From contig CAYJEJ010000001.1 of the NCBI GenBank assembly GCA_964369315.1, positions 4,091-68,090 on the forward strand: a stretch of DNA of 64,000 bases, in the 5' to 3' direction. Below, piece after piece: positions 7,337 through 57,393 of this stretch. Under the pieces are notes generated by a model. That model had not been told where the DNA came from and did no database searches. It was given only the letters and a program-made list of their open reading frames with translations. The first letter of the stretch is position 1; every line of letters starts with the position of its first letter. Source of the DNA: an uncultured Alphaproteobacteria bacterium (lineage in GTDB: Bacteria; Pseudomonadota; Alphaproteobacteria; UBA3830; JAIRWN01). A program made the position numbers and the translations under genes.

Positions 7337-9263
7337 AAAATTTCAGTCCACTTTAATTATCATAAGCATATTTTTTGCTGTATTCGTTTTTAATACTTAT
7401 GCGGAGCAAAAGAAATCATCGAAAATATCTTATTCCGTGCATATAAAAAAAACCAAGGACTATAAGCGTTTGCCTACCGAATTTTGGGAGGCTTTTGAAC
7501 GCGATGCAAGGCTTTTTAAATATGCCAAAAGTCAGGTCAGAAGCAAAAAACACCTAAAAGATAGGATAAAACAAGACATCTATATGCTCAAATTAAGGGT
7601 TCAGGCATATGGTTTTTTTGAACCAAATATTGACTATGTAATTTTTGAAAATGCCAAAGGTATCGAGGTTTTAATAGTGCCAAATTTTGGCGAAAAATTT
7701 ATAATAAAAAATATAAAAATATCCAGCAGAACGCAACCACTGAAAACTGTGTTAGATAGTTTAAAACCGATAATCGGTAAATCTGCGTCTTACACAACAG
7801 TGCAGGCAGCGGCATATCTTCTTGAAAGAAATTATCAAAAAAACGGCTACCCTAATGCTCGCGTGACAAAAAAAGTAGAATCAATCAACCGAGAAACCAA
7901 AACTGTAACGTTATATTTTGAATTAGAAACTGGTCATTTTAAGGTCTTTGGGCAAAATGCTCTGGGTATGAAAAATTCGCTCAAACAGAAATTTATTGAT
8001 AACAGAATAACTTGGAAAGAAGGACAGCCCTATGATGTCAGCAAGGTTGAACAAACTAGTCATAATTTTTTAAATACTAAAATTTTCTCATATGTAGATA
8101 TCCAGTGCGACACCGAATCAAGTCCAAATTCTGTTCCTGTGAATATAAATTTGGTCAACGATAAACAAAGGATGGTCGAGTTTGGAGCGGGTCTTTCTTC
8201 ATCGTCCATTCAGAGAAGAAACAAACAGGGCTTTAGGTTTAATAACCTAGATAACAGTTTAAAAGCAGCCGTAGTGAAAGGGTCATGGACACATTTTAAT
8301 ATGTTTGAGGGAGGCGAAAAACTGGCAGTTGACGCAAAAATCACTCCAACTGCGTTGCTAGAAAACGAAAAAGAAAAGCACTTGGAATCTGTCTTAACTG
8401 TCGAAATGACCCAGCCAGATGTTTTAAAAACAGATAACTCTGCTGTCTATCGATTAAAAGTGGCTAAAGAGCCGACCTATGTCTACACAAAAAATAGCGT
8501 TGGCGTTGAAACCTTGTATGATGTGGCTATTGAAAGCTCTGCGAATATTCAAACCGGCTTAGCATTAGAATTGGCGAATGTAAAAGATATTAATACAATT
8601 ACAGACAATCAAATGGTACAATCAGTCGGCTATATTACTACTGGAATTCCTGTGTATTTTTTGTATAACTCATATGACAACCCGCTCAATCCAACATCTG
8701 GCTTCAACATTAAGGTTTTGGAATTGCCCCAATATGCTAGCTTAAAATATAAGTTCAATAACTCAAAAAAATCTAGTTTCATCAACTACTTAGAATGTCG
8801 ATGTGCCATCACTCAAAAAATTGATGATGACGCACGATTAGTCCCTGCAGGATGGGCGAGCTTCAGGCAGGTTTCAGGTCTTGATTTTGCAATGTTACCA
8901 TTGGACAAGCGTTTATATGCCGGTGGCGTCAATTCTGTGCGTGCCTATGCAGAACAGCTTGCAGGTCCGATGATAGGGTCAACCGACGAACCCACAGGGG
9001 GACGCTGTGCCCTAGAATTTGGCGGGGAGCTCAGAATCAATATCACAAAAAAGCTTGGGGTGGCTCCTTTTTGGGAAGCGGCAAAAGTGTCTAGTAAACT
9101 TTGTCCGTCAACATCAGACACCTTATACAGTGGTTGGGGGGTTGGTTTTAGGTATAATACACCAATCGGACCAATACGTGCAGATTTCGCATTTCCATGT
9201 AGAAAAAGAAAAAACATAGACCCTTCTATGCAATTTATATTAAGTTTGGGGCAAGCATTTTAA
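7323..9263 (+). CDS. tamA: BamA/TamA-family outer-membrane protein (POTRA + surface-antigen beta-barrel)
   Basis: 646 aa. Signal peptide, POTRA-like N-terminal half, and a C-terminal barrel ending ...FILSLGQAF (terminal aromatic). Followed directly by a TamB-like gene. Confidence 0.8.
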   Translation: MAIYKKFQSTLIIISIFFAVFVFNTYAEQKKSSKISYSVHIKKTKDYKRLPTEFWEAFERDARLFKYAKSQVRSKKHLKDRIKQDIYMLKLRVQAYGFFEPNIDYVIFENAKGIEVLIVPNFGEKFIIKNIKISSRTQPLKTVLDSLKPIIGKSASYTTVQAAAYLLERNYQKNGYPNARVTKKVESINRETKTVTLYFELETGHFKVFGQNALGMKNSLKQKFIDNRITWKEGQPYDVSKVEQTSHNFLNTKIFSYVDIQCDTESSPNSVPVNINLVNDKQRMVEFGAGLSSSSIQRRNKQGFRFNNLDNSLKAAVVKGSWTHFNMFEGGEKLAVDAKITPTALLENEKEKHLESVLTVEMTQPDVLKTDNSAVYRLKVAKEPTYVYTKNSVGVETLYDVAIESSANIQTGLALELANVKDINTITDNQMVQSVGYITTGIPVYFLYNSYDNPLNPTSGFNIKVLELPQYASLKYKFNNSKKSSFINYLECRCAITQKIDDDARLVPAGWASFRQVSGLDFAMLPLDKRLYAGGVNSVRAYAEQLAGPMIGSTDEPTGGRCALEFGGELRINITKKLGVAPFWEAAKVSSKLCPSTSDTLYSGWGVGFRYNTPIGPIRADFAFPCRKRKNIDPSMQFILSLGQAF

Positions 9264-10530: not shown

Positions 10531-12834
10531 TTGTTAATCGACTTGAAGCTGCTTGACGAGACATTGGAGGCAAAAGTTAATGGTGGAATTGACCAAAACA
10601 TTAACATCTCTAAGCTAGAAATTAAAAATAAATCTATTCACCTGATAAATAAATCTGAAATATCCGTAAAAAATCTTGACCATATTGTAGGTAAAATCAG
10701 CGGAACGTTCAAAAATTTAAATTTCATCAACTATTTTCTTGAGAAAAAAATTGAATGTGACGGAAGTTTTGACCTGTCCAGCACAGGGAATAAATTAATT
10801 GCAAAACTAAACACCAATAAATTAAAAATAGATAAAATATCTTTCAACAACATTAACGCTCAAATTGAAACCAATCCAATTTCTCTTAATGTTACTGTAA
10901 AATCATCAACCCTATATGGTAACAAAATTAACAATTTGACCCTCATCTCGGAGCAAGAAAAAACAGGTCAATTAAACTATAAATTATCAGCACTAATAGA
11001 AAACTTTAAAAATGCTTTATTACTTTCATCAGGTAGCGTTTTTTACTCCCCCAAAAACATAAACTTAAAAATCAATGATTTTTCAGTCAATAATCTCACA
11101 ACCAAGCTTCGATTAGTCACTCCCGCATCAATACATTATGAAAATGACAATATCAACTGTTCAATCCCAAGCTTGACCTTTAATGATAGAGAGTTTTTAA
11201 GATTAGGGTTCAAAAAAAATAACAAACAAATTGATTGCTCACTTTATTTAAAAGATTTACCAGTATCTTTATTTAACCTAGTTGGATATAAAGCCTATAA
11301 ATTTGGCACAATCTCAACTGATTTCACAATAAATGGTTCACCAAACTCCCCCAATATAATCTTTAAGGGAGAATGTAAAAATATCGGCAAAAAATTACAT
11401 AATATCAAATCACATTGCATTTTTTCAGGTATATATAAAAACAACAGATTCACTGCTGATATAGACTTTCCCAATTTTGTTGGTATTTTTGGTCGCATTA
11501 ACTTAGACATTGGTTGCCAAGTTACTCTGTTTCCTTTTCATGTTGATGTTTATAAAAATGAATATTTAAAGATGTTATGCACCCTAAAATCAGACCTATC
11601 GGTTCCCATGAACATTTTATTACCAGATGGGATGGAATGCTGGGGCGTCTTAAACTCTAATCTAAACATCACAGGAACGCCAAGTTCACCCAAAATCGAT
11701 GGTCAGCTTAATTTAAAAGATGGCGGTTTTGAACAAATTTCATCTGGCACATATGTAAAAAACATCAATATTCTCGCCAAGACCAATAACAATGGTCAAA
11801 TGCTTATAAAGGCAAGTGCGACCGACGACTCAGATGGTAAAGCATTTGTCACTGGTAATATTATTCGCCAAGACTCACAATCTATTCCAGTTTTAGACTG
11901 CCTAGTAAATTTTGATAATTTTAAAATAATAGACGAAGATGATTTAATCGTCAGTGTAAAAGGCGATTCTTATTTAAAAGGTGGATTAGACTGTCTTCAT
12001 TTTACTGGTAAACTCGACATGCCATATGTATTAGTCGATATCGACACAACATATAGCGATTCAAAAGGGGACTTACAAGTCCTAGAAAACGGAAAACATA
12101 TAGATGTGTTTGAAACCCCAGAAATCAAGGTTTCCTTGCCCTTTAAATGTAATGTGGCACTGAATTGTCAAAAGCTGCATCTAAAAGGAAAGCTTTTGGA
12201 CTCTGTGTGGTATGGAGATGTCAAGTTATTGGGAGGGTATGATAAAAACGCTGCATTAAGTGGGGTTTTAAAGCTCAGAGAAGGGCATTTCTGTTTCTTA
12301 GAAAGGAACATCCCCATAAAAGTTGGAACCATCTCCTACAGTGAGCATGCTCCGTTTGTTCCCGTTGTTAATATGCACGCCAGTAAAGACATTAATATTG
12401 CAAAAGTCACAGCAAACATAAAACAAACTTCAAGTAGTGTTGTTTTTAATTTAAACTCTAATCCCCAGCTACCTTTAGAGACTATTTTTTCTTATTTATT
12501 ATTTAATAAAGCACAATATAATCTAACTATTTTAGAGGCTTTACAGGTCAATGGCGTTGTTTCTGCCGTGAAAGAACAATCAAATAAAACTTTCAAATTA
12601 CTAGAATCTGTTGAGCAACAAGACTTAAGTTCGGACTTATCGTCTTATAACAACCCTTCAAGTAGTAATATCAGTCTTGGAAAGTATGTCGGCGAAAATA
12701 TTTATTTAAGTATTGAAAACGATACTACTAAAAAGGTTGCCTTCATGAAGGTTCATATTGTTTTCACGAAAAACGTCTCTGGTCAAATAAACTCTCTAGG
12801 AGAGTTTGGTCTTGGATGGCAAAGACGATATTAA
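10531..12834 (+). CDS. tamB: TamB-like protein, C-terminal segment with DUF490-type end
   Basis: 767 aa, and the frame is open back to 10414. The C-terminus ...LGKYVGENIYLSIEND...GEFGLGWQRRY resembles the TamB/DUF490 terminal domain. Confidence 0.7.
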   Translation: MLIDLKLLDETLEAKVNGGIDQNINISKLEIKNKSIHLINKSEISVKNLDHIVGKISGTFKNLNFINYFLEKKIECDGSFDLSSTGNKLIAKLNTNKLKIDKISFNNINAQIETNPISLNVTVKSSTLYGNKINNLTLISEQEKTGQLNYKLSALIENFKNALLLSSGSVFYSPKNINLKINDFSVNNLTTKLRLVTPASIHYENDNINCSIPSLTFNDREFLRLGFKKNNKQIDCSLYLKDLPVSLFNLVGYKAYKFGTISTDFTINGSPNSPNIIFKGECKNIGKKLHNIKSHCIFSGIYKNNRFTADIDFPNFVGIFGRINLDIGCQVTLFPFHVDVYKNEYLKMLCTLKSDLSVPMNILLPDGMECWGVLNSNLNITGTPSSPKIDGQLNLKDGGFEQISSGTYVKNINILAKTNNNGQMLIKASATDDSDGKAFVTGNIIRQDSQSIPVLDCLVNFDNFKIIDEDDLIVSVKGDSYLKGGLDCLHFTGKLDMPYVLVDIDTTYSDSKGDLQVLENGKHIDVFETPEIKVSLPFKCNVALNCQKLHLKGKLLDSVWYGDVKLLGGYDKNAALSGVLKLREGHFCFLERNIPIKVGTISYSEHAPFVPVVNMHASKDINIAKVTANIKQTSSSVVFNLNSNPQLPLETIFSYLLFNKAQYNLTILEALQVNGVVSAVKEQSNKTFKLLESVEQQDLSSDLSSYNNPSSSNISLGKYVGENIYLSIENDTTKKVAFMKVHIVFTKNVSGQINSLGEFGLGWQRRY

Positions 12835-22282: not shown

Positions 22283-22343
22283 GGCGGGGATAAACATTAG
22301 AATGCTTTCTGATTTTTGAAATAAGGACTGGTGACATTTATCC

Positions 22344-23093
22344 TTATATAGACCTAGATTGTGACTTATATAGGTCTGTTAGAAATAGTAATTTATTTTT
22401 ATGCTCAGGTTTAATGTTGCCCTCATTGAAAAAAATAACCATTACTCGTCTTTTATCTACCAATAATTCAAAATCTTTAGTTTTATGAAAATTAAATCTA
22501 GTTTTTCCTGGATTTTTACCTGCCTTAAGAGGTCTTTTTTTATAAATGTTTGATAACTGTCCATTCGGCATGCATATGATATTAATATTTAAAATTTCAA
22601 GATTGTTATCCTCATATAAAATGGTAATAAAATATGTTAAACAAGGCTTGGATAAACCGTCATATTGATAATAATGTGGGAGATGTGGGGAATATTCTCT
22701 TTCCTTTTTGTTGACATCCATAAAATAATTGTAACTATTTTGATTTTCACCAACAAATATGGAATTATTGTAGTCACCGATATTCCTAGTTTGAACAGTT
22801 TTTAGGTCTATATGGATAAAAGCATCTTCAACTTCAAAAAATAAATCAGAGCCCACTGGACACGAATTAGGTCTTCCAATGGCTTTTCCATTAAGCAAAG
22901 CGTAAACTATCCTTTCTGCTCCGACACTAAAATCTCCAGAGCCATTAGTGTTCCAAAACTTATACCATTGACCTTTTATTTTTTCTTTAGTTTGAAAGCC
23001 CGAGAGCATCTCATCTTCTGCAAATTTTAAGAAATAATAAAATTTTTTCAAATATTTATATTCTAAGATTTCTAATTCTTTATCTGTTATCAT
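22344..23093 (-). CDS. putative type II restriction endonuclease (PD-(D/E)xK candidate)
   Basis: Likely start is MITDKELEIL at 23093, overlapping the methyltransferase stop (23080-23082) by 14 nt. Candidate catalytic segment GSDLFFEVEDAFIHIDLKT. The call rests mainly on gene context. Confidence 0.55.
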   Translation of the reverse strand: MITDKELEILEYKYLKKFYYFLKFAEDEMLSGFQTKEKIKGQWYKFWNTNGSGDFSVGAERIVYALLNGKAIGRPNSCPVGSDLFFEVEDAFIHIDLKTVQTRNIGDYNNSIFVGENQNSYNYFMDVNKKEREYSPHLPHYYQYDGLSKPCLTYFITILYEDNNLEILNINIICMPNGQLSNIYKKRPLKAGKNPGKTRFNFHKTKDFELLVDKRRVMVIFFNEGNIKPEHKNKLLFLTDLYKSQSRSI

Positions 23094-24282
23094 AATATAT
23101 CTGTAACATATGTAACACTTCTTGTGCAATACGATTAGCAAATTTAACAGGGACAGCATTTCCTATTTGTCGATACATGCTATTTAAACTGCCGTAAAAT
23201 ATAAAATCATCGGGAAATGTTTGAATTCTAGCACATTCTCTAGCAGATAGTCGTCGGTGTTTATTTATGTGGATTTCTGGGCTGGTAGCAGTGATAGTGT
23301 CACTTGGGGTTTTCCAGTTTGTTATTCTGAGCGACTGCTCAAATACAATCTGTTTTTCCTCAAGCTCAGTGACTTGTTTGTCGTATTTATCATCAAAATT
23401 TAAAATTGTTTTTAATTTCCACCAATCGTTTGGCTTCGGGATACTGCCAGAATTATTGTCTTTCCTGAACCAGTGTCCTGCTGTGTGTTTGTAACCAAAA
23501 ATTTGGTCTATACTTTTTGTTGAAATATTAGCTTTTTTTCTCCATAATTTCAGATAATCGCATATTTCGAATTGAGTGACCTTGTGTTTTCTTGCCCAAA
23601 ATTTATCATGTACATTAGTAGAGCTATAGTGGTTATAGATGGTTTTATTATTGATTTTTATAGGCTCAAATTGAATATCTATATGTTGTAAATCACCGAT
23701 TGCTTGTTCTGTTGTAATAAAATTATTAGCTTGATGGGATGCTTTGGGGAAAAAATTCTCGCAACCAATTTTATTTCCAATAATTATTACTCTTTCTCTT
23801 TGTTGTGGCACACCATAAAAGGCGGTATTTATCAGTTTATAGGCTACCTTGTATCCAAGGTCTTCCAAGTCTTGCTTTATATTTGCAAAAACTAGCCCTT
23901 TACCTAGGGACAATATACCTTTGACATTTTCAGCGACAATAATTTTTGGATTAGAAATTGTAATAAACCTAATCATCTCTTTGTATAAGGCATTTCTGTC
24001 ATCATTAACATGCCTGTTTTTGTTAGCGATTGAAAAGCCTTGACAAGGAAACCCGCCGATTAGAACATCGACATCTCTAGGGATTAAATCATCTTTGATT
24101 TCAGATATATTAAGATTTAATATGTTTGGGTCTATGTTTTTCGCATAAGTGGTACAGGCATCTTTGTCAAAATCATTCGCAAAAATAATATTAAATCCAG
24201 ACTGTTTAAAGCCTAAATCCATGCCCCCAGCTCCAGAGAACAAACTAATTAGTTTAAAATTATTAGACAAAAGCCATCCCAC
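23080..24282 (-). CDS. DNA (cytosine-5)-methyltransferase
   Basis: 400 aa with a GTG start. Motif I is FSGAGGMDLGF, motif IV GGFPCQGFS, motif VI ENVKG, motif VIII QQRERV, motif X QIGNAVP. A long variable (TRD) region lies between VIII and IX. Confidence 0.93.
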   Translation of the reverse strand: MGWLLSNNFKLISLFSGAGGMDLGFKQSGFNIIFANDFDKDACTTYAKNIDPNILNLNISEIKDDLIPRDVDVLIGGFPCQGFSIANKNRHVNDDRNALYKEMIRFITISNPKIIVAENVKGILSLGKGLVFANIKQDLEDLGYKVAYKLINTAFYGVPQQRERVIIIGNKIGCENFFPKASHQANNFITTEQAIGDLQHIDIQFEPIKINNKTIYNHYSSTNVHDKFWARKHKVTQFEICDYLKLWRKKANISTKSIDQIFGYKHTAGHWFRKDNNSGSIPKPNDWWKLKTILNFDDKYDKQVTELEEKQIVFEQSLRITNWKTPSDTITATSPEIHINKHRRLSARECARIQTFPDDFIFYGSLNSMYRQIGNAVPVKFANRIAQEVLHMLQIYYDNR

Positions 24283-24475
24283 GATATCATAAAAATCAAC
24301 CTAGCACATACTGAAGTGCGATAACAGTTCCGCGAATTTTCTTGCTATTGTACTCTAATAGTATTGTATTTTGAAGTCGAAATTATCTTTTGAGTTACTC
24401 TCACCATTTGATTTAGGTTAAACAATGGATAAGATAACCTTATTATAGATTTATATTGCTTCTTGAATTTGAGTT

Positions 24476-24494
24476 GGGGCGGTGTATCCGCCCC
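24476..24494 (-). terminator. GC-rich hairpin 10 nt downstream of kinase-like gene A
   Basis: ggggcgg-tgtat-ccgcccc is a perfect 7-bp GC stem in an AT-rich context. There is no clean U-tract, so terminator function is uncertain. Confidence 0.4.
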
Positions 24495-24504
24495 ATGCAA
24501 TTTG

Positions 24505-26013
24505 TTAAAGGTTTTCGAAGTCTTTTATTTTAAAATCAAAGTACTTAATAGCGGTTATTTGTAGAGCTAATTCGTTAAAACCACAAGAGAGATTGTTATC
24601 TTTCAATTGCTCTAGGGTGCTGTTTGGGTTAAGCAACACGTCAGAGAATTTTATGACAGATTTTAAGTAATCTAATTCATTAGGGTAGGTTTCAGCGAAT
24701 GCTTTTGGGAACTTTGTTTTTATTTCCCCTTGAGCATTGGTGAAATTATATTCATTCGCCGTGTCGCAAAATGGGTTGCAAGAAAACAATGCTCCTAATT
24801 GAAAGGTTGTGTCCCAGTATGAGTTAAATGCAAAACCTTTGAAATACCCAAGAAGCATTCGATGGGGCTCCTCTTCTTGAACAATTATGTCTTTGTGAAA
24901 GAAAGGTAGGTGTTTTCTATTGATTATGTGTCTGGCGATATAACTGTCCATAAAATCTACGAATGTTGCTAAATCTTTAAAAGATTGTGCCCCACGGTTG
25001 TTCCAACTTCTATTACCACCACCATATATTTCATCAAATATTTTTAAACCATAATAATATTCCCCCAATGCATATTGTAAAGCAATAGAATTATCAAATA
25101 ATTGATAATATTGCTTAAGAAACACACATTTTTGTTCAGACGTATTTGTGGTTGTGTCGAGCAGTATATCTGAGACGTCAGCACATATATTTGTTAATTC
25201 TTTCTCTTTTTTTATTGCATTTAAGCTAAGATTGTCTGTTGTTAAATAGCGAAAAGTTTCGGAGTATAATCTTGCAGAACTCCAATCTATTATAAAAATT
25301 GTTGGATTCTGAGGTGTCATGTCACTGTAATTTATAAAAAAATTTTTTCCATGCATATCTCCTTGATGATAACCCCTTTCAGGCAGAACACATAATAAAT
25401 TACCCCAAAATTCTTCAGTTTTCTCGGCTTCATCGAGTTGTTTTGCTCTTGTGTGATGAGATAAGATACCAAATATTTGTGTTCCTTGAGCGAATGGTTG
25501 TATTTGTACAAGTTTTTCATTTGGATTTAACTTCCCTATTTGACTTAGGTCATCGGATAAGAAGTTAATTTTTCTAACATTGTGACTTGATGTATCTACT
25601 ATCAACATATCTGTGGGGTGCACGGCGATGACCTTATAAGTTTCTCCATCAAAATCGAAATCAAATATAGGTGTTAAACCATTGTCAGATGGTGTTATGT
25701 TCTTTGCCATCATTTGGGACTTAAGGATTTGTAGGCTTTTGAATTCTTCATTGTCTCTTTGGGATTCGGCAATTTTGATAATATGGTTTTCATGTTTGTA
25801 AATGTGGGCGATTTTCTCTATTGGATAGTGTATTTTTTCCACGAGAGCTTTAGTGTCGTCATTAGGTGATATTTGTACTAATTTTGTTTTATCAATATTA
25901 AAATGTTGAGAAGCAACATTGAGCATGTCGTCAATATTTAAGGCAGCGTTTAAATGGCAAGCACTAACTATTGATGTGATGGCAAGACATAAATAAGTAT
26001 ATAATTTTTTCAT
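24505..26013 (-). CDS. exported protein-kinase-like / aminoglycoside-phosphotransferase-fold protein, paralog A
   Basis: Start is MKKLYTY at 26013, with AGGAG 8 nt upstream (the ORF is open to 26046). Signal peptide is LCLAITSIVSACHLNA. Kinase-like motifs: HIIKIAES, YHQGDMHGKNFFI (HxDxxxxN-like) and IFIIDWSSA. Confidence 0.6.
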   Translation of the reverse strand: MKKLYTYLCLAITSIVSACHLNAALNIDDMLNVASQHFNIDKTKLVQISPNDDTKALVEKIHYPIEKIAHIYKHENHIIKIAESQRDNEEFKSLQILKSQMMAKNITPSDNGLTPIFDFDFDGETYKVIAVHPTDMLIVDTSSHNVRKINFLSDDLSQIGKLNPNEKLVQIQPFAQGTQIFGILSHHTRAKQLDEAEKTEEFWGNLLCVLPERGYHQGDMHGKNFFINYSDMTPQNPTIFIIDWSSARLYSETFRYLTTDNLSLNAIKKEKELTNICADVSDILLDTTTNTSEQKCVFLKQYYQLFDNSIALQYALGEYYYGLKIFDEIYGGGNRSWNNRGAQSFKDLATFVDFMDSYIARHIINRKHLPFFHKDIIVQEEEPHRMLLGYFKGFAFNSYWDTTFQLGALFSCNPFCDTANEYNFTNAQGEIKTKFPKAFAETYPNELDYLKSVIKFSDVLLNPNSTLEQLKDNNLSCGFNELALQITAIKYFDFKIKDFENL

Positions 26014-26143
26014 TCTTTTACTCCTTATTTTTAGAACGATATACACTATATATCACAAATATACCGTAATAGTCAAAGAAACCTTATTTTGAATTTTGTT
26101 AAAAATTGCTGTTTTTTTGTATAAAGGAGATGGTGTTTTTTAT

Positions 26144-26223
26144 TTATTTTTTAATAGAGAAGTCGCTTGTTCTAACTAGCTCAAGCATTTTATTGAATGC
26201 TTTTTGAATTTGAGTTGGGGCGG
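26144..26223 (-). pseudogene. relic copy of the alaS 3' end inside the tandem array
   Basis: Exactly 1,741 bp from the real alaS tail (27885-27964). It shares ttatttattttttaatagaga and cattttattgaatgctttttgaatttgagttggggcgg, with a short cluster of mismatches between them. Confidence 0.8.
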
Positions 26224-26235
26224 AGTATCCGCCCC
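26217..26235 (-). terminator. GC-rich hairpin 10 nt downstream of kinase-like gene B
   Basis: ggggcgg-agtat-ccgcccc. The left arm derives from alaS coding sequence. Confidence 0.4.
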
Positions 26236-26245
26236 ATGCAATTTG

Positions 26246-27754
26246 TTAAAGGTTTTCGAAGTCTTTTATTTTAAAATCAAAGTACTTAATAGCGGTTATT
26301 TGTAGAGCTAATTCGTTAAAACCACAAGAGAGATTGTTATCTTTCAATTGCTCTAGGGTGCTGTTTGGGTTAAGCAACACGTCAGAGAATTTTATGACAG
26401 ATTTTAAGTAATCTAATTCATTAGGGTAGGTTTCAGCGAATGCTTTTGGGAACTTTGTTTTTATTTCCCCTTGAGCATTGGTGAAATTATATTCATTCGC
26501 CGTGTCGCAAAATGGGTTGCAAGAAAACAATGAACCTAATTGAAAGGTTGTGTCCCAGTGTGAGTTAAATACAGACTCTTTGAGATATTCAAGAGAAAAG
26601 ATTGCATTGTCTTGAACAATTATGTCTTTGTGAAAGCAAGGTAGGTGTTGTCTATTGATTATGTGTCTAGCGATATAACTGTTCATAGAATCTACTAATG
26701 TTGCTAAATCTTTAAAAGATTGTGCCCCACGGTTTTGCCACTCTAACGTATTTTCACGCATCTCTAATAATTGACAATCTTCACATCCAAAGAGATATTC
26801 ATAAACGGGTGACGAATCGAAAAAAGCAAAAAATTTTCTATTGAAGTGTTTTCTAAGTTTTTCAAGGATATGTGCAGCATTGTTCCCCCTTTGTACCATA
26901 CCCCAGTCTAAGGGTGGGGCATCATTTTGAGCTAATTGACCAAGGCGGGATAATTGTTTCTCTGCGTTAAAGCTAAGAGCATATGGAAGGAGAATAAGCG
27001 GTATTAGCTCCATCTCTTCTTGCTCTCTTGCGGAGCTCCAGTCTATAAAATAACAAATTCTTTTATTAGGTAAGAACAATATATTACCAGAATTACCATC
27101 TCCATGGGAAATTTTGTTTTCATAGAGAGTGCATAATAAATTACCCCAAAATTCTTCAGTTTTCTCGGCTTCATCGAATTGTTTTGCTTTTATGTGAGAA
27201 GATAAGATGTCAAATATTTTTGTTCCTTGAGCGAATGGTTGTATTTGTACAAGTTTTTCATTTGGATTTAACTTCCCTATTTGACTTAGGTCATCGGATA
27301 AGAAGTTAATTTTTCTAACATTGTGACTTGATGTATCTACTATCAACATATCTGTGGGGTGCACGGCGATGACCTTATAAGTTTCTCCATCAAAATCGAA
27401 ATCAAATATAGGTGTTAAACCATTGTCAGATGGTGTTATGTTCTTTGCCATCATTTGGGACTTAAGGATTTGTAGGCTTTTGAATTCTTCATTGTCTCTT
27501 TGGGATTCGGCAATTTTGATAATATGGTTTTCATGTTTGTAAATGTGGGCGATTTTCTCTATTGGATAGTGTATTTTTTCCACGAGAGCTTTAGTGTCGT
27601 CATTAGGTGATATTTGTACTAATTTTGTTTTATCAATATTAAAATGTTGAGAAGCAACATTGAGCATGTCGTCAATATTTAAGGCAGCGTTTAAATGGCA
27701 AGCACTAACTATTGATGTGATGGCAAGACATAAATAAGTATATAATTTTTTCAT
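26246..27754 (-). CDS. exported protein-kinase-like / aminoglycoside-phosphotransferase-fold protein, paralog B
   Basis: Same signal peptide and N-terminal ~178 aa as paralog A. Central motifs are ISHGDGNSGNILFL and CYFIDWSSA. The last 94 aa are identical to A. Confidence 0.6.
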   Translation of the reverse strand: MKKLYTYLCLAITSIVSACHLNAALNIDDMLNVASQHFNIDKTKLVQISPNDDTKALVEKIHYPIEKIAHIYKHENHIIKIAESQRDNEEFKSLQILKSQMMAKNITPSDNGLTPIFDFDFDGETYKVIAVHPTDMLIVDTSSHNVRKINFLSDDLSQIGKLNPNEKLVQIQPFAQGTKIFDILSSHIKAKQFDEAEKTEEFWGNLLCTLYENKISHGDGNSGNILFLPNKRICYFIDWSSAREQEEMELIPLILLPYALSFNAEKQLSRLGQLAQNDAPPLDWGMVQRGNNAAHILEKLRKHFNRKFFAFFDSSPVYEYLFGCEDCQLLEMRENTLEWQNRGAQSFKDLATLVDSMNSYIARHIINRQHLPCFHKDIIVQDNAIFSLEYLKESVFNSHWDTTFQLGSLFSCNPFCDTANEYNFTNAQGEIKTKFPKAFAETYPNELDYLKSVIKFSDVLLNPNSTLEQLKDNNLSCGFNELALQITAIKYFDFKIKDFENL

Positions 27755-27884
27755 TCTTTTACTCCTTATTTTTAGAACGATATACACTATATATCACAAA
27801 TATACCGTAATAGTCAAAGAAACCTTATTTTGAATTTTGTTAAAAATTGCTGTTTTTTTGTATAAAGGAGATGGTGTTTTTTAT

Positions 27885-30557
27885 TTATTTTTTAATAGAG
27901 AAATCGCTTGCACTAATCACCTCAAGCATTTTATTGAATGCTTTTTGAATTTGAGTTGGGGCGGTGCCTCCCCCTTGAGCGAAGGTTGGCTTGCCTCCAC
28001 CACCTGTGCCGCCAATTATACTAATCACATCTTGTAATAAATTATCAGCACGAATAGTGTTGGATATGTTCTCGCTCACGCCGATTAATAACGACACTTT
28101 ACCTTCTTCAGATGTGTTGGCTATTGCAAATACGCTATTTTGTGGGTTTTTGAGCTTGAGATAGTCCATCAGTGGGCGTAGGTCATTTTTATTAATTTGA
28201 TTGACTGATTTGGCAATAAAATGCACACCATTTTCTAGTGTTAAGTTTGTGTCATTATTAGAAGCAACAAATAATAACTTTTGCTGAAGGTGACTGATTT
28301 TTTCTTCAAGCGATTTGTTAAGTTCGATCAAGCTAGAGCACTTATTAACAAGTTCATGTGGAGAGCACTTAATCACCGCACAGACGTCCCTGACCTTATG
28401 TTCAAAATCGGCAAAATAATTAAAGACTTCTATCCCAGAGATTGCTTCTATCCTGCGGGTATTCGAGCCAATCCCACTTTGCTCAACTATTTTAAATACA
28501 CCGATAGCTTTTGAATCCTCGACATGCAAGCCCCCACAGAGCTCGCATGATATTGTATCGCCAGATATTTTATCCTTCATCGTGATTATGCGAACCTTGT
28601 CGCCATACTTATCGCCAAATAATGCCATGGCACCAGAGCTTATGGCGTCATCTTTATCAGTGATTTTTGTTGTGACTTGCAACGAACTTTGTATCCAGCA
28701 ATTTACAATCTGCTCAACTTGTTGGATTTGTTCTGTGCTGAGTGCTTTTGCAAAACTAAAATCAAAACGGATTCTCTCTTGGGTGACTTGAGAGCCCTTT
28801 TGGAGCACTGAGCTGCCCAAGACCTTGCGTAATGCCGCGTGTAATAAGTGGGTCGCACTGTGATTAGCACGTAATTTTGTGCGTATGATAAGGTTTGGCT
28901 TCATGAAGACGTCGTCTTGTTCTTTTAAGGTGCCGGTGAGCATCTTGCCATAGTGCAGGATGAGACCTCCAACTTTTTTTGTATCCTCTACAGAAAAGAC
29001 AAAATCTCCTTTCGAAATCAGCCCTTGGTCACCGGCCTGTCCACCTGATTCAGCATAAAAACAGGTTTCATAAGTGACGAGAGCTCCCTGCTGCCCTTCA
29101 GATATTCTTTCAGACACTTGGTTTTCAGTGATAATGGAGGCCACAATCGAGCAATTGTCAGATTTCTCATACACAGAGGATATTGTATCTTTCCCAATCA
29201 TCTTTTGCTTCAGCTCCAAAAGTGACTGGTTCAAAGCATTATCGCCCGACCCACTCCAATTTTTTTTCGAATTTTCTTTTTGCTCAGTTAAACAAGCATT
29301 AAAACAATCAATGTCGACTGACATCCCCTTTTCTTTCAAAATATCTTGCGTTAAATCGAGGGGGAAACCAAATGTGTCATAAAGCTTAAAGGCAACTTCA
29401 CCAGACATTAATTTAGCACCTGTCAACTTTGCTGTTTCAAAGTTTAAGAGCTCAAGCCCTTTATCCAGCACTTGTTGAAATCGTTCTTCTTCTTGCAATA
29501 TTGCGGTCTTAATAGTGCTATTAAAAATTTCCAGTTCTTGATAGTGCCCAGCCATCCGAGGGATGAATCTTTCAGCAACCTTGGGTAGGAATGCTTTTTT
29601 TGATGAAACTCCCAACCGATGAGCATGGCGTATTGCACGGCGAATAATCCTTCTTAAAACGTATCCTCGTCCCTCGTTACTGGGTAAGACTCCGTCTGCA
29701 ATCAAAAAGCAAATAGTTCTGATATGGTCGGCAATCACTTTATGCGATACGCCCATATCACTAATAGGATTACCAATGATTTCGTTGATATCGGATATAG
29801 ACGATTTTAAAATATCAGTTTCATAATTATTCTCCACGCCCTGTAGGGTTGCGGCGAGACGCTCTAGCCCAATTCCAGTATCTATCGATGGTTTTGGTAA
29901 CATGATTTGGCGACCGTCTTGTAAGCGTTCAAATTGCATGAATACCAAATTCCAGATTTCAACAAATCTGTCGCCATCTTGCTCTGCTGAACCAGGTATT
30001 CCACCCCATATATGCTCCCCATGGTCGTAAAATATTTCAGAGCACGGTCCACAAGGACCCGTCTCGCCCATAGACCAAAAGTTATCATTTGTCGAAATGC
30101 GTATTATCTTTGAATCATCAAAGCCAGTTAACTTTTTCCAAATGCTAGCTGCCTCTTCATCAGTGTGATAGACGGTGACCAACAGTTTATTAGGGTTTAA
30201 TCCAACGGTTTTTGTTAAAAATTCCCACGCAAAAACAATCGCTTCTTCTTTAAAATAATCTCCAAATGAAAAATTGCCCAACATCTCGAAAAATGTGTGA
30301 TGCCGTGCAGTATGACCGACCTGTTCAAGGTCATTATGCTTCCCGCCGGCACGAACACACTTTTGAGTAGTGGTCGCTCTTGAGATGTTACTTTTTATTG
30401 CACCAGTGAAAATGTCCTTAAATTGCACCATACCGGCGTTGACAAAAAGTAAGCTCGGGTCATTACTAGGGATTAGTGAGCTCGACGGAAGAATTTCATG
30501 GTCTTTGCTAGAGAAAAAGCTCAAAAATTCATTACGTAAATCACTTGATGATGTCAT
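27885..30557 (-). CDS. alaS: alanine--tRNA ligase
   Basis: 890 aa. Class II motifs ...HHTFFEMLGNFSFGDYFK... and editing-domain HSATHLLH. C-terminal DHHA1-like GGGGKPTFAQGGG. Confidence 0.95.
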   Translation of the reverse strand: MTSSSDLRNEFLSFFSSKDHEILPSSSLIPSNDPSLLFVNAGMVQFKDIFTGAIKSNISRATTTQKCVRAGGKHNDLEQVGHTARHHTFFEMLGNFSFGDYFKEEAIVFAWEFLTKTVGLNPNKLLVTVYHTDEEAASIWKKLTGFDDSKIIRISTNDNFWSMGETGPCGPCSEIFYDHGEHIWGGIPGSAEQDGDRFVEIWNLVFMQFERLQDGRQIMLPKPSIDTGIGLERLAATLQGVENNYETDILKSSISDINEIIGNPISDMGVSHKVIADHIRTICFLIADGVLPSNEGRGYVLRRIIRRAIRHAHRLGVSSKKAFLPKVAERFIPRMAGHYQELEIFNSTIKTAILQEEERFQQVLDKGLELLNFETAKLTGAKLMSGEVAFKLYDTFGFPLDLTQDILKEKGMSVDIDCFNACLTEQKENSKKNWSGSGDNALNQSLLELKQKMIGKDTISSVYEKSDNCSIVASIITENQVSERISEGQQGALVTYETCFYAESGGQAGDQGLISKGDFVFSVEDTKKVGGLILHYGKMLTGTLKEQDDVFMKPNLIIRTKLRANHSATHLLHAALRKVLGSSVLQKGSQVTQERIRFDFSFAKALSTEQIQQVEQIVNCWIQSSLQVTTKITDKDDAISSGAMALFGDKYGDKVRIITMKDKISGDTISCELCGGLHVEDSKAIGVFKIVEQSGIGSNTRRIEAISGIEVFNYFADFEHKVRDVCAVIKCSPHELVNKCSSLIELNKSLEEKISHLQQKLLFVASNNDTNLTLENGVHFIAKSVNQINKNDLRPLMDYLKLKNPQNSVFAIANTSEEGKVSLLIGVSENISNTIRADNLLQDVISIIGGTGGGGKPTFAQGGGTAPTQIQKAFNKMLEVISASDFSIKK

Positions 30558-39564: not shown

Positions 39565-40203
39565 ATGTTAATTTTCGCAGATTCCGCAGATTTAAAAGAT
39601 ATACAAAATTTGGTTGATTATGGGTTGATTGATGGTGTGACAACTAATCCATCATTAATTGCAAAAAGTGGGAAAAATTTTTATAGCTTAATCAAAGATA
39701 TAGCAAATATTTGTTCAGGGGCGATTAGTGCTGAGGTTACGACGATGAATTGTAACGAAATGGTTGAAGAAGGTCGGGCTCTTGTCGGTCTTGCGAAAAA
39801 TATAGTGGTGAAAATCCCGATTACATTGGATGGAGTAAAGGCTTGTAAAATACTATCTAGTGAGGGGATTAAGGTGAATATGACGCTTTGCTTCTCTACT
39901 TTACAGGCACTTATGGCCGCCAAGGCTGGTGCAACTTATGTGTCCCCATTTGTTGGGCGACTAGATGATACAGGGGTGGACGGCATCTCAATTTTGGACG
40001 AGATTTGTGACGCCTTAGGGGAATATGACACGCAAGTTCTGGCAGCCTCGATTAGAAACTATTCTCATATGCAACAGGCGGTGAACATAGGTGTTGATGC
40101 GATAACAGTTCCTGCAAAGTTAATATATGATTGTTTGAAGCATCCATTAACCGACAGCGGTTTAAAAACCTTTATGGACGATTGGAACAGAGCAGCCAAA
40201 TAG
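39565..40203 (+). CDS. tal: fructose-6-phosphate aldolase / transaldolase (type 3B)
   Basis: 212 aa. DGVTTNPSL, the VKIP Schiff-base Lys segment, and VSPFVGRLDD. Confidence 0.9.
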   Translation: MLIFADSADLKDIQNLVDYGLIDGVTTNPSLIAKSGKNFYSLIKDIANICSGAISAEVTTMNCNEMVEEGRALVGLAKNIVVKIPITLDGVKACKILSSEGIKVNMTLCFSTLQALMAAKAGATYVSPFVGRLDDTGVDGISILDEICDALGEYDTQVLAASIRNYSHMQQAVNIGVDAITVPAKLIYDCLKHPLTDSGLKTFMDDWNRAAK

Positions 40204-40205
40204 TT

Positions 40206-41120
40206 GTGCGGTATGATGAACATATAAAAAATTGGCTTAAATACCTATCAATTGAAAGGGGTTATTCGCCAAATACGGTGGAGTCTTATCGAATAGACGT
40301 TGTCAGTTTTCATCAATTTATGAAAGCCCACAAGGGTGAAGGAGTGACGCCCTGTTTATCTGAATTAAAAATATCAGATTTACGTTCTTGGTTGGCATCA
40401 CGTGTCGCACAGGGGTTTTCAGCCCGCTCAAACTCGAGGGCGATTTCAGGTTTGAAGTCTTTTTGTCGATATATGTCTAGCGTCAAGCAAGACGTTCCTG
40501 AATTTATATTTAAGTTTAAATCACCACGCGTCAAGCCATTGCTACCAAGACCGTTAACGAAGGAACGTGTATTAAAGGTAATAAATTATATAGACGAATC
40601 TCAAGATATTTGGATATCTTTCCGAAATCAGGCACTGTTTTATCTGTTATATGGTGCAGGTTTGCGTATTAATGAAGCGTTGTCGTTGAACATAGAAGAC
40701 ATCGACGAAAATCAATCACAAGTTCGTGTGATGGGTAAAGGGCGTAAAGAACGAGTGGTGCCTTTACTCCCTATAGTGCAGAAGTCTTTGAGTAAATATC
40801 TAGAGCGTGTTCCATACCAACAAAGTGGAAGTGCCCCAATATTTTATGGTAAGCGAGGCAAACGACTTAACGCAGCTGTATTTGAAAGATATATGTTAAA
40901 AATCAGGAAAGAGCTCGGCTTTGAAGACAGTGCCACACCCCACGCATTAAGGCATAGTTTCGCAAGTCATTTGGTGTCAAAGGGGATGGGACTGAGGTCG
41001 CTCCAAGAATTGCTTGGTCATGTCAGCCTTGCAAGTACACAAATTTATACAGATATCTCTGATGAAGAGATGTTTAAGGTCTATCAAGCAACCCATCCGC
41101 TCAATAAAAGGCAGCCATAA
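40206..41120 (+). CDS. site-specific tyrosine recombinase XerC/XerD family
   Basis: GTG at 40206, just after the tal stop (the ORF is open from 40131). SAM-like N-domain YLSIERGYSPNTVESY. Catalytic region HALRHSFASHL...LLGHVSLASTQIYT. Confidence 0.88.
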   Translation: MRYDEHIKNWLKYLSIERGYSPNTVESYRIDVVSFHQFMKAHKGEGVTPCLSELKISDLRSWLASRVAQGFSARSNSRAISGLKSFCRYMSSVKQDVPEFIFKFKSPRVKPLLPRPLTKERVLKVINYIDESQDIWISFRNQALFYLLYGAGLRINEALSLNIEDIDENQSQVRVMGKGRKERVVPLLPIVQKSLSKYLERVPYQQSGSAPIFYGKRGKRLNAAVFERYMLKIRKELGFEDSATPHALRHSFASHLVSKGMGLRSLQELLGHVSLASTQIYTDISDEEMFKVYQATHPLNKRQP

Positions 41121-54666: not shown

Positions 54667-55455
54667 TTACCTATACAAACCCTTAATTCCTGTCAAAGTC
54701 AGAACACCTATAAAAAACAAAACTGCAATGAACAAACCTGATATAATAAAAGCAAGAGTTAACAGTTTAGAAGCCTTGTATTTATTGAACAACTCATACA
54801 GTTTATAAATAATATTATGAACAACAGAGTTTAGGCGTGAAAAAATTGATAATGATATAGTTATTAAAGGAATAAGAAGAAAGCCATACTTAAATTTAAC
54901 ATCGCCATAACTATAACTCTTAAACGTCATATAAAAAATGTTAAGGGCTAAAAGAAAAGCTGTAATAAACTTGGGAATATATTTTTTGTAGCAGAAATTA
55001 GGGTTGAAGTTTTTTCTAATCCAAGTTTTTAAAATATTTATGCTTAATATGATAGGCAATAAATGACCTATCATTACTCCAGCTACAACATTTATAGATA
55101 GTTTGTCGTTTGATATTGCCAAAATAAACCATCCCAACAATGATGCTGATACGAAAATAGGTATGGTTATAAGAAAAATATTAAGGTACTTATCACGTAA
55201 TTCAGGAGCCGATTTTAATAATATTTTTTTAATAAAACATGCAATTAAAAAAACTATAAAAATAACAAATAAAATAGAACAGAGCCCACATTCTTGTCGA
55301 CCAAAATCCCCCACAATCTGATTATTAGTCTGCCCACCTTCAGTTTGTATAGGGTCAACTTGTACTGGTTCATTTTTGTTTTCCTCGTTGATATTAGCGT
55401 TGTCTTCGGATTGAGACTCATTGCCAAAGATATAGTCATGGATATCAGAGTCCAC
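54667..55455 (-). CDS. hypothetical polytopic membrane protein (about 6 TM) with an acidic/Asn-rich N-terminus
   Basis: 262 aa. The GTG start overlaps the stop of the upstream 606-aa ORF by 11 nt. Its first ~37 codons lie inside direct repeat DR-L. Confidence 0.5.
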   Translation of the reverse strand: MDSDIHDYIFGNESQSEDNANINEENKNEPVQVDPIQTEGGQTNNQIVGDFGRQECGLCSILFVIFIVFLIACFIKKILLKSAPELRDKYLNIFLITIPIFVSASLLGWFILAISNDKLSINVVAGVMIGHLLPIILSINILKTWIRKNFNPNFCYKKYIPKFITAFLLALNIFYMTFKSYSYGDVKFKYGFLLIPLITISLSIFSRLNSVVHNIIYKLYELFNKYKASKLLTLAFIISGLFIAVLFFIGVLTLTGIKGLYR

Positions 55456-55513
55456 CGTATTCCACCACTTTGTTTGTTAAGAACTGTTTGTTTGGGTCTT
55501 TTAGGTAGACTTT
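55344..55513. repeat. direct repeat DR-L (170 bp)
   Basis: Aligns with 57236-57393. Near-identical blocks are tttgtatagggtcaacttg(t/c)actggttcattttt... and cgtattccaccac(t/a)(t/a)tgtttgttaagaactgtttgtttgggtctt. The middle is diverged with a 12-bp length difference. Confidence 0.9.
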
Positions 55514-57335: not shown

Positions 57336-57393
57336 CGTATTCCACCACTATGTTTGTTAAGAACTGTTTGTTTGGGTCTTTGAGGTAGACTTT
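57236..57393. repeat. direct repeat DR-R (158 bp)
   Basis: Partner of DR-L, 1,892 bp away. Together they bracket the body of the 606-aa ORF. Confidence 0.9.

Follow-up and report, generated by a model that had tools for sequence, protein, structure and literature searches.

The two adjacent 502-codon genes described here, A and B, are probably a genuine head-to-tail recombinational mosaic of exported, probably kinase-like paralogues whose ends have been homogenised. They lie between secG and alaS on the chromosome of a poorly sampled alphaproteobacterium, in a window of 64,000 nucleotides (the whole stretch of DNA that was analysed), where a small low-GC accessory patch (GC 31–37%, versus 40–48% in the flanks) contains the pair and a restriction-modification system adjoins it. 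A single relative, P0003, was found among 1.8 billion cluster representatives standing for ~15 billion proteins (E = 6.9e-8 against the A/B profile, residues 90–249, in a search of 1.8 billion proteins), and the initial annotation, which had recognised no described family, was right in that no Pfam or NCBIfam entry matched at its cut-off. A and B would thus belong to a tiny orphan family of three known members with a protein-kinase-like catalytic-loop signature (Asp219, Asn224 and the IDW Asp).

The initial annotation had reported a tandem duplication with an exact period of 1,741 bp, marked by a 20-mer at three positions, and both observations held. Exact copies of the 20-mer TTGAATTTGAGTTGGGGCGG lie at 24463, 26204 and 27945 (not one match arose in 100 shuffled sequences), both minus-strand ORFs lie where they had been placed (Table 1), and alignment resolves two head-to-tail 1,741-bp units, 24457–26197 and 26198–27938, followed by 26 further bases of the repeat inside the alaS 3′ end. 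The repeat family truly starts at 24457, with a boundary repeat of 26–36 nt. In each unit, a 502-codon gene is accompanied by an alaS tail fragment, a promoter-like region, a strong ribosome-binding site and a GC hairpin. What had been missed is that the third 20-mer copy and the last 60–80 bp of each unit are alaS 3′ end (alaS itself occupies 27885–30557 on the minus strand, and boundary repeat copy 3, 27939–27964, lies within its end); therefore, the intergenic spacer 26144–26223 is an alaS-tail pseudo-fragment. It differs from the real alaS tail by six clustered mismatches (26162–26179), which may represent one template-switch event and therefore do not date the duplication. To the left of boundary repeat copy 1 no more alaS homology was found, and this copy is a third unit in truncated form or else a repeat that predates the duplication.

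Table 1. Coordinates of the features of the duplicated locus, in positions of the window.
Feature	Position	Strand	Description
Boundary repeat copy 1 (TGCTTCTTGAATTTGAGTTGGGGCGG)	24457..24482	.	Origin: alaS codons T-A-P-T-Q-I-Q-K-A; repeat family D6
Hairpin after gene A	24476..24494	-	GC-rich GGGGCGG-N5-CCGCCCC, 11 nt past gene A stop codon
Gene A	24505..26013	-	502-aa exported, putatively kinase-like protein; motifs YHQGDMHGKN, IFIIDWSSA; public-collection entry P0002
Second, minor variable patch of gene A (aa 379-395)	24829..24879	-	Includes 2-codon indel; repeat spacing there 1735
Gene A hypervariable core (aa 208-336)	25006..25392	-	Putative catalytic loop, IDW motif and ~90 aa beyond; GC3 0.19
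Gene A upstream region	26014..26143	-	Identical (100%) to gene B counterpart; AAGGAG ribosome-binding site 26021-26026
alaS 3′-end pseudo-fragment	26144..26223	-	Final 20 codons and boundary repeat copy 2
Hairpin after gene B	26217..26235	-	GC-rich; -23.8 kcal/mol, z -5.4; loop one base off that of copy A
Gene B	26246..27754	-	502-aa exported, putatively kinase-like protein; motifs ISHGDGNSGN, CYFIDWSSA; public-collection entry P0001
Gene B hypervariable core (aa 208-338)	26741..27133	-	GC3 0.31, like shared ends
Gene B upstream region	27755..27884	-	Same ribosome-binding site and promoter-like sequence; directly downstream of alaS stop codon
Real alaS 3′ end	27885..27964	-	Last 26 codons plus stop; right edge of repeat

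An assembly artefact, in which alleles of a mixed population or a mis-resolved collapsed repeat were joined head to tail, might mimic this arrangement: the sequence comes from a 154-kb draft contig, short reads struggle to resolve exact repeats of 308 and 682 bp, and the two units are, oddly, of the same length. However, the inter-copy junction copies neither flank (six alaS-fragment differences; hairpin loops one base apart, 24483/26224), and an allelic bubble would not account for the doubling of promoter, alaS fragment and hairpin. Because the junction carries private variants, unique reads must support it. We consider an artefact most improbable.

Translation of each ORF gives 502 aa if it begins at the ATG that follows AAGGAG and 513 aa if it begins at a GTG farther upstream. 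A promoter-like sequence upstream of gene A was read by eye (TTGACT at 26071–26076, ~17–18 nt, then TGaTATATA), and a consensus scan of the region made no promoter call. Because promoter region, ribosome-binding site and export signal are present in identical form in each unit, expression of both genes and export of their products are likely. The hairpin after gene A folds at -18.6 kcal/mol (z -4.45) and is terminator-like but lacks a U tract. The hairpin pattern has 2 matches, versus 0.01 expected, both at the gene ends and none elsewhere in the 64-kb window.

The 26-nt direct repeat, present three times with one copy restoring the alaS reading frame, together with a hairpin at each boundary and the low-GC accessory surroundings, raises the question of whether repeat and hairpin would form a recombination site, either for mobile cassettes inserted serially at an att-like alaS 3′ site or for a programmed-variation expression locus with silent donors elsewhere. 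Such a history is improbable, given that no integrase or recombinase is adjacent (the nearest candidate is an XerC/D-like gene 12 kb away), that the hairpin does not recur, and that neither donor cassettes for either centre (in the window or the protein collections) nor further paralogues from the same genome (in the protein collections) were found. Moreover, both copies have full putative promoters, so neither should be silent, and cassette insertion leaves the identical coding ends unexplained.

A sliding-window alignment of the two units placed all 284 differing columns (substitutions and indels) in three sites only, namely a single hairpin-loop base (24483), the block 24792–25479 and the six clustered positions at 26162–26179, with 100% identity over 24484–24791 and 25480–26161. 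Approximately 1,050 bp are thereby kept identical, comprising the flanks, the N-terminal half and the C-terminal 93 codons; codons 1–178 and 410–502 and the upstream regions have no differences, synonymous ones included (S ~160 synonymous sites). The earlier picture of identical ends around a diverged centre, rather than evenly spread divergence, was thus confirmed, as was the cancelling of the central indels, which sum to zero and leave both ORFs the same length. Its details required some correction: the left block is identical over 24484–24791 but has one mismatch at 24483; the 189 identical codons apply only to the GTG-started ORF and are 178 from the real ATG; and strong divergence describes ~25013–25390, at the random level of ~40–48%, whereas 24813–25012 is at 68–90%.

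Within the core (codons 208–336), A and B share 27% identity, being about as distant from each other as each is from P0003, with dN 0.93 and a saturated dS of 1.6, and over the ~90 aa past IDW their similarity is below detection (z 1.6). Synonymous divergence along the genes falls into strata (dS 0, 0.04–0.065, 0.31 and 1.6), being ~0.04 at aa 337–378, ~0.3 at aa 379–409 and saturated at aa 208–336, and the shoulders carry 2 synonymous versus 14 nonsynonymous changes (P = 8e-4 under omega 0.2). Such layering suggests that segmental recombination or gene conversion occurred repeatedly, and speaks against a single swap or even decay; the alignment and the comparisons of dS and identity leave recombination or gene conversion, as initially proposed, the best explanation of the mosaic.

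The same data bear on a simpler history, a recent duplication after which one copy's centre was replaced by a single homologous import of a divergent strain or species allele. A very recent duplication would explain ends that are 100% identical with zero synonymous change, and the locus lies in a low-GC accessory patch; the A core deviates in GC3 (0.19, versus 0.30–0.38 for the B core and shared ends), which an imported foreign segment would explain no less well than in-situ divergence, and is slightly nearer to the foreign homologue P0003 (32%, versus 25% for the B core). However, one tract should give roughly uniform dS instead of the three levels seen, the nearly exclusively nonsynonymous shoulder differences do not resemble what purifying selection leaves in a diverged orthologue, private differences mark the unit edges, and no donor or third allele for either central cassette was found in any collection searched. 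We therefore regard a single import as a doubtful but not negligible alternative.

Under repeated recombination, two old paralogous or allelic lineages would underlie the pair, which would fit both the layered dS and the nonsynonymous excess in the shoulders. The ends of both genes would have been repeatedly homogenised by homologous recombination or gene conversion, and the centre would stay distinct through selection or simply through missing homology. The N-terminal half kept identical would comprise the leader, the putative ATP-binding lobe and the hinge, and the putative catalytic loop, metal-binding motif and ~90 residues beyond would differ as much as between unrelated organisms. A and B might then be two isoenzymes with common export, nucleotide-binding and C-terminal modules and alternative putative catalytic and substrate-recognition modules; if so, the putative kinase pair may have a wider substrate range.

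A kinase-like fold is weakly suggested by the protein sequences, in which the catalytic motifs and the leader MKKLYTYLCLAITSIVSACHLNA quoted in the initial annotation are present. A, B and P0003 all retain D219, N224 and the IDW Asp, and the HxDxxxxN...IDW motif arises by chance in ~1 in 10,000 shuffles. All sub-threshold matches in four libraries are kinases, and those to Pfam (APH, OspG, ABC1, Pkinase and RIO1), NCBIfam (Bud32, Kdo kinase, NleH and LanKC) and PADLOC kinase models share the same register. Among PDB chains, P0003 matched 9x4g_B, a Ser/Thr kinase chain (E = 8.4e-4, the alignment starting ahead of the hinge and reaching the catalytic loop), CDC7 (2.6e-3) and also OspG, and hhalign placed HGD..N..IDW on the catalytic loop and DFG of APH(3')-IIIa and PKA at probabilities <4%. 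A conserved hinge-like NEKLVxIQPFA aligns with the Bud32-type hinge, and the K127-to-hinge and hinge-to-D219 spacings (45 and 47 residues), as in protein kinases, fit kinases of the Bud32/RIO/OspG type. The proposed beta3 Lys in HIIKIAES did not survive this comparison: it is gapped in the homologue, and, with the proposed alphaC Glu, it lies too far upstream for the hinge-to-catalytic-loop spacing, so that the invariant K127 (YKV) fits better as the candidate Lys. Likewise, evidence for the proposed aminoglycoside-phosphotransferase/choline-kinase label is no stronger than that for Bud32, RIO or OspG-type protein kinases.

The invariant motif and the same-register matches thus agree with the initial kinase assignment, but no Pfam or NCBIfam kinase family was reached at its curated threshold, copy A alone matches none, and the matches mostly cover 35–90 residues around one motif. 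AlphaFold gave no confident fold in two runs (pLDDT 33 and 35), in copy A the position two residues ahead of the catalytic Asp, usually His, is Q, and the periplasm, where export would place the protein, is not known to contain ATP, so an exported kinase needs a special setting. The motif could accordingly be a coincidence or relic, and the exported proteins could have another fold or be catalytically inactive pseudo-enzymes, with, for instance, a binding or structural role in the envelope. This seems rather unlikely in view of the strict conservation of three catalytic or metal-binding residues between proteins of 25% identity, the aligned hinge, the kinase-like spacings, the exclusively kinase matches and the rarity of the motif in shuffles. 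The hydrophobic N-terminal export signal stands: a leader with n-, h- and c-regions is common to A, B and their only remote homologue. In A and B it matches a lipobox (VSAC), so they may be lipoproteins, and the Sec-type leader may be a lipoprotein signal rather than that of a soluble Sec substrate. The host-interaction effector function suggested in the initial annotation found neither support nor contradiction in the analysis.

Among known kinases, Bud32/RIO, Shigella OspG, E. coli NleH, KdkA and APH/choline kinases share with A and B the HxDxxxxN loop followed by a hydrophobic-Asp-aromatic motif, and the hinge-to-Asp distance of ~47 residues is that of Bud32 and eukaryote-type kinases. A and B differ in that they reach no family threshold, are extended by ~100 residues at the N-terminus, end in a C-terminal domain of 160 residues that lacks homologues, and carry what looks like a cleavable Sec or lipoprotein signal. 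None of the other families is known to have such a signal as a rule: type III secretion delivers OspG and NleH, and the remainder are cytoplasmic.

The hypervariable centre between conserved ends recalls Anaplasma msp2/p44, Neisseria pilE/pilS and Borrelia vlsE, in which the conserved ends provide recombination homology and one expression site is served by many promoterless donor cassettes. In contrast, both A and B are complete with a promoter-like region, no donors were found in the window or the protein collections, and the protein is no obvious surface antigen.

As far as their available text goes, surveys of the Legionella pan-kinome (PMC9758233) and of oral-microbiome PKL families (bioRxiv 10.64898/2026.09.18.752743) describe many divergent unannotated kinase-like families in host-associated bacteria, recognisable only via remote homology or structure; within that text, no match was made to the A/B family, and a signal peptide and mosaic tandem arrangement are not among the features reported. 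Close parallels are the Helicobacter pylori paralogues homA/homB, babA/babB/babC and sabA/sabB, same-genome copies with near-identical 5′ and 3′ ends that differ only in the middle, where discrete allele types occur, the ends being homogenised by RecA-dependent intragenomic gene conversion (concerted evolution) (PMC3960876). Those genes encode outer-membrane adhesins at separate loci, with a variable ligand-binding or antigenic surface, whereas A and B, known from one genome, are adjacent and enzyme-like, their variable part includes the putative catalytic loop, and their middles share 27% amino-acid identity, compared with ~90% overall for homA/homB. A and B are thus a real mosaic paralogue pair of an already known kind, within an orphan exported kinase-like family, in which a known recombination pattern would act on the catalytic core of a putative enzyme instead of a surface antigen.

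The 20-mer described in the initial annotation occurs at three positions in the window and nowhere else, with zero occurrences expected by chance, and repeat finding confirmed that its 1,741-bp period is exact (coordinates are listed in the table below). Each unit carries one of two ORFs of equal length, A and B, in the order alaS-tail fragment, upstream region of ~130 bp, ribosome-binding site, gene and hairpin. AAGGAG lies 8 nt before an ATG in both genes, so the product is likely the 502-aa protein starting MKKLYTY rather than that of the 513-aa GTG-started ORF. In a unit-versus-unit alignment, all 284 differing columns (substitutions and indels) fell within three places, and the described arrangement of identical ends around a divergent centre was borne out by two blocks of 100% identity. 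Apart from the single base and the cluster of six, the divergence is indeed confined to the central block, but it is uneven there: part of the block is still 68-90% identical, and only the stretch at 40-48% reaches the level expected of unrelated AT-rich DNA.

The right edge of the repeat falls within alaS, the gene to the right of the pair, and in the third copy of the 20-mer the encoded residues are T-A-P-T-Q-I-Q from the AlaS tail. The two genes are separated by 80 bp that duplicate the final 20 codons of alaS together with the boundary repeat, a 26-nt alaS-tail-derived sequence found in three copies at the unit edges. In frame, this pseudo-fragment reads AFNKMLELVRTSDFSIKK up to its stop, compared with AFNKMLEVISASDFSIKK in the real tail; the six mismatches are clustered and, as read by eye, raise the self-complementarity of the fragment. 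They may stem from one template-switch-type event, not from six separate point mutations, which makes them unusable as a clock. No further alaS homology was found to the left of the first repeat copy, which is thus either what is left of a truncated third unit or a 26-nt repeat already in place before the duplication. The idea that the leftmost repeat is the ancestral alaS end was dropped, as today's AlaS C-terminus aligns with the end of its homologues.

A perfect hairpin, GGGGCGG-N5-CCGCCCC, lies 11 nt past each of the two stop codons and has no further occurrence in the window; one arm is alaS-derived sequence, and the stability of both hairpins greatly exceeds that of shuffled sequences (z -4.5 and -5.4). 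A candidate promoter, TTGACT-N17/18-TGaTATATA, was recognized in the upstream region by eye only, and a consensus promoter and terminator scan called neither the upstream regions nor the hairpins of A and B. The junction between the copies is a copy of neither outer flank and has private variants, which argue against an assembly loop; the tandem feature is real. Although their centres are at least six indels apart, both genes have exactly 502 codons. An inverted centre was rejected as the cause of the equal lengths, reverse-strand similarity being absent.

Features of the tandem pair and its surroundings, with positions in the window
Feature	Position	Strand	Observation
Omp85/POTRA protein	7323-9263		
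TamB-like protein	10531-12834		
Low-GC patch between secG and alaS	22300-27880		GC 31-37%, versus 40-48% in flanking core genes
Type II restriction-enzyme-like ORF	22344-23159		PADLOC REase_II 3e-7; no Pfam match
Dcm-type C5 cytosine methyltransferase	23080-24282		Pfam E 4.5e-82
Start of repeat homology	24457		Repeat finding
20-mer, three copies	24463, 26204, 27945		
Difference site 1	24483		Single base in hairpin loop; unit-vs-unit alignment
Identical block	24484-24791		100% identity; unit alignment
Gene A	24505-26013	minus	
Difference site 2	24792-25479		Central block; unit-vs-unit alignment
Less diverged part of central block	24813-25012		68-90% identity
Most diverged part of central block	~25013-25390		40-48% identity
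Identical block	25480-26161		100% identity; unit alignment
Copy of alaS tail and boundary repeat	26144-26223		
Difference site 3	26162-26179		Cluster of six; unit-vs-unit alignment
Gene B	26246-27754	minus	
alaS	27885-30557	minus	
XerC/XerD-type tyrosine recombinase	40131-41120		Phage_integrase and SAM-like N-terminal domain
Secretin	52891-54585		Own lipobox leader (LASC)
Second partial tandem repeat	55343-55516 / 57235-57396		Period ~1,880-1,892 bp, 88% identity
606-aa ORF	55445-57265		No Pfam match
58-aa ORF	57325-57501		

A codon-level comparison of A with B resolved their divergence into layers. Codons 1-178 and 410-502 have a dS of 0 (S ~160 sites) and a dN of 0, whereas the core, codons 208-336, has a saturated dS of 1.6 and a dN of 0.93; intermediate values were obtained for codons 179-207 (dS 0.065, dN 0.106), 337-378 (dS 0.043, dN 0.072) and 379-409 (dS 0.31, dN 0.31). 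In all, ~1,050 bp are free of differences and the core is saturated, dS falling into several strata, and the 40-fold gap in synonymous divergence between adjacent blocks excludes one duplication that then decayed evenly. Import of one tract is an unlikely source of the divergence, too; the mosaic needs several recombination events with different end points. The proposed recombination is therefore supported by the dS strata, in a form refined from one swap to multiple events. GC3 is 0.19 in the A core, 0.31 in the B core and 0.30-0.38 in the shared parts, which hints that the A core is of outside origin and counts against a purely in-place history. In the core, A and B (27% identity) are no closer to each other than either copy is to P0003, their sole remote homologue (32% for A and 25% for B), and over the ~90 residues past IDW the similarity between A and B is undetectable (z 1.6).

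In the shoulders, the moderately diverged blocks beside the core, 14 of the 16 changes are nonsynonymous (P = 8e-4 at omega 0.2). These changes are compatible with neutrality or diversifying selection and not with ordinary constraint, a pattern expected if conversion erases neutral differences and selected ones persist. RecA-type recombination across the identical blocks of 308 and 682 bp could keep the ends of A and B identical, with the centre either too diverged for conversion or shielded by selection. No donor or further copy of either centre was found within the 64-kb window, and no other paralogues of this genome were found in protein collections. A diversity-generating retroelement was rejected, since the differences include indels and all bases; no reverse transcriptase was detected in a Pfam scan of ~40 of the 60 largest ORFs in the window (at least 150 aa).

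The kinase-likeness of A and B was assessed from sequence only. [quoted passage not shown] Equally invariant is (I/F)IDW, the DFG-equivalent metal-binding motif of the superfamily, for which an Asp was sought 10-25 residues past the catalytic loop. The loop His is present in B and P0003, and A reads H-Q-G-D. By correspondence, D219 would be the catalytic base, N224 the Mg-binding Asn and the IDW Asp the DFG-type Asp; hhalign placed these motifs on the catalytic loop and on the DFG of PKA or the IDL of APH(3')-IIIa, at negligible probability. K127 (YKV) and a hinge-like NEKLVxIQPFA are likewise invariant in the three proteins. K127 lies 45 residues before the hinge and 92 before D219, and the hinge lies 47 before D219, a 45/47-residue spacing as in eukaryote-type and Bud32-type kinases and unlike that of APHs. 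The Lys first assigned to beta3, K80 (HIIKIAES), is deleted in P0003, which leaves that assignment unsupported, and no conserved Glu could be placed as the alphaC Glu in the A/B/P0003 alignment.

None of the Pfam and NCBIfam profiles matched at cut-off, the best being APH (18.5 versus 23.2 bits) and OspG (19 versus 27). The great majority of the weak matches were to protein-kinase-like families, and every kinase match was in the same register: APH, OspG, ABC1, Pkinase and RIO1 in Pfam; Bud32, Kdo kinase, NleH and LanKC in NCBIfam; generic kinase models in PADLOC, for P0003 only; and 9x4g_B, CDC7, OspG, VRK1, CHK2 and RIO2 in the PDB. P0003 matched the Ser/Thr kinase chain 9x4g_B with an E value of 8.4e-4 over 93 residues that begin before the hinge and take in the catalytic loop, and CDC7 was returned at 2.6e-3. 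The composite kinase motif arises by chance in ~1 in 10,000 shuffles. The mean pLDDT of the AlphaFold2 models was 33.4 for single-sequence input and 34.9 when three sequences were supplied. The narrower aminoglycoside-phosphotransferase or choline-kinase label (PF01636) is not supported: B scored 18.5 and P0003 18.1 bits against the cut-off of 23.2, A had no match, and the hinge-to-Asp distance of ~47 residues leaves out the long helical insert of APHs, this distance being ~100 residues in APH(3')-IIIa. For the kinase fold itself, the invariant motif residues and the in-register matches speak in favour, and the lack of any match above a curated cut-off speaks against; we consider a kinase-like fold probable and the prospects of actual phosphotransfer activity evenly balanced. 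Residues 323-365 of B, in its own core, also matched the Spt4/RpoE2 zinc finger (E 5.4e-5; 23.7 bits versus a cut-off of 25), a match judged probably spurious because it has just one CxxC pair and is below cut-off.

Export was assessed by the presence of a basic n-region, a hydrophobic h-region of 10-15 residues and a small-x-small or lipobox site, and all three elements of the proposed Sec-type leader were found. The leader of A and B consists of MKK, LYTYLCLAITSIV and SAC / HLNA-A, with a hydrophobic core of 13 residues and a hydropathy peak of 2.2; it contains both a lipobox, VSAC at 16-19 (Cys19; regex, A and B only), and an AxA-like site, LNA-A. P0003 begins with MNK, a hydrophobic stretch and SHA-S, without a lipobox. 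The conservation of a leader across 25%-identical proteins supports export of A and B, putatively as a lipoprotein or in soluble form. The window also codes for envelope and secretion genes, among them a secretin, an Omp85/POTRA protein and a TamB-like protein.

The family is extremely small. A search of 5.8 billion clusters returned A and B alone, both on one 154-kb NCBI contig, and when an A/B profile was run exhaustively with HMMER against 1.8 billion representatives, the only addition was P0003 (462 aa; E 6.9e-8, match over residues 90-249), which has the motif HEDLHNSN...IFIIDW and an SPI-type leader and is an orphan too in a k-mer-seeded search. P0003 comes from three Logan assemblies (L081, 2634-4022, SRR33454264; also L082 and L083), and its single-copy gene is flanked by uvrD helicase and inositol-monophosphatase genes, with no synteny with the window. 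A T6SS ImpA-like gene and an RND efflux pump are also encoded on the P0003 contig, which has 36% GC. No further relatives were obtained from a three-protein profile, from metagenome and viral scans or from tblastn against plasmids and phages. The host AlaS has a best match of just 49-50% identity among 185,579 GTDB species representatives, the best matches all being alphaproteobacterial, and, out of ~15 billion proteins, RecA clusters with no other at 90% identity. To judge from these proteins, the host is an alphaproteobacterial lineage that is essentially unsampled, leaving no syntenic relative for comparison.

The pair lies between housekeeping genes, which include plsX, tgt, rph, hrcA, ychF and secG on the left and alaS, recA, smpB, dapA, gatAB, gyrB and tsaD on the right. 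The methyltransferase and restriction-enzyme-like ORFs overlap by ~80 bp, and this R-M module (22344-24282) adjoins A and B; given its low GC and its content of the R-M module and the pair, the patch between secG and alaS looks like an accessory insertion. An anti-phage defence kinase, prompted by the adjacent R-M module, was rejected: PADLOC was blank for A and B, and the signal peptide also argues against cytoplasmic defence. No integrase was found next to the pair, whose neighbours are the Dcm methyltransferase, the restriction enzyme, alaS and recA. An integron cassette or att-flanked element was likewise rejected, there being neither an adjacent integrase nor a recognizable boundary site; the boundary hairpin has a 7-bp stem, and inspection by eye showed none of the GTTRRRY core sites that mark attC. 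The XerC/XerD-type tyrosine recombinase encoded 12 kb from the pair is probably a housekeeping dimer-resolution enzyme unrelated to the duplication. Elsewhere in the window, a second partial tandem repeat runs from a gene's 3' end across the spacer into the 5' end of the gene that follows, and the last 20 residues of a 606-aa and a 58-aa ORF are nearly alike there (KVYLKDPNKQFLTN.VVEY.G.). This region may be another array with conserved boundaries and a different interior.

A and B have identical expression and export signals, both genes are complete, and their alternative centres, set between identical N-terminal halves and C-terminal tails, both retain the catalytic residues. Both proteins would thus be made and exported, sharing the nucleotide-binding, hinge and C-terminal modules and differing around the catalytic loop and in the segment that follows. 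In kinase-like enzymes, that segment forms the substrate site, so the substrates of A and B probably differ. A host-directed role would be possible only if the bacterium lives in a setting that brings its exported proteins into contact with ATP. We think it improbable that the pair is a module-swapping enzyme system of an exported kinase-like effector family, in which paralogues or strains trade the catalytic/substrate core as a cassette, recombination uses the invariant leader/N-lobe and C-terminal domain as handles, and both forms are selected in tandem; if so, it would do for enzymes what cassette variation does for antigens and would be a rare Sec-exported bacterial kinase. If both proteins are active, they would constitute a rare bacterial family of kinase-fold enzymes, Sec-exported or lipoprotein, and a natural experiment in modular enzyme evolution within one operon-sized locus, with constant nucleotide-binding and export modules and an alternating catalytic/substrate module; the 'identical ends, different middle' pattern of surface antigens would then shape enzymes too. 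As no homologue of the family has an established function, biochemical findings of any kind would extend annotation into a new corner of the PKL superfamily. If the proteins are inactive, or the arrangement is a peculiarity of one strain, the locus is merely a tidy case of partial gene conversion between tandem duplicates.

In H. pylori, the differences between homA and homB are restricted to the middle region, and segments of the bab and sab families are homogenized by RecA-dependent gene conversion (PMC3960876). The architecture of A and B, known from one genome, resembles that of these concerted-evolution paralogues (hom/bab) in its identical ends and divergent middle, and differs from donor-cassette antigenic variation (msp2, pilE, vlsE) in the completeness of both copies and the absence of detected donors. 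Recent bacterial surveys report many unrecognized kinase-like families (PMC9758233; bioRxiv 10.64898/2026.09.18.752743), and an orphan kinase-like family is therefore unsurprising in itself. The unusual features of A and B are the signal peptide and the mosaic that swaps the catalytic core, and the locus joins two known phenomena, partial gene conversion of tandem paralogues and a divergent kinase-like family.
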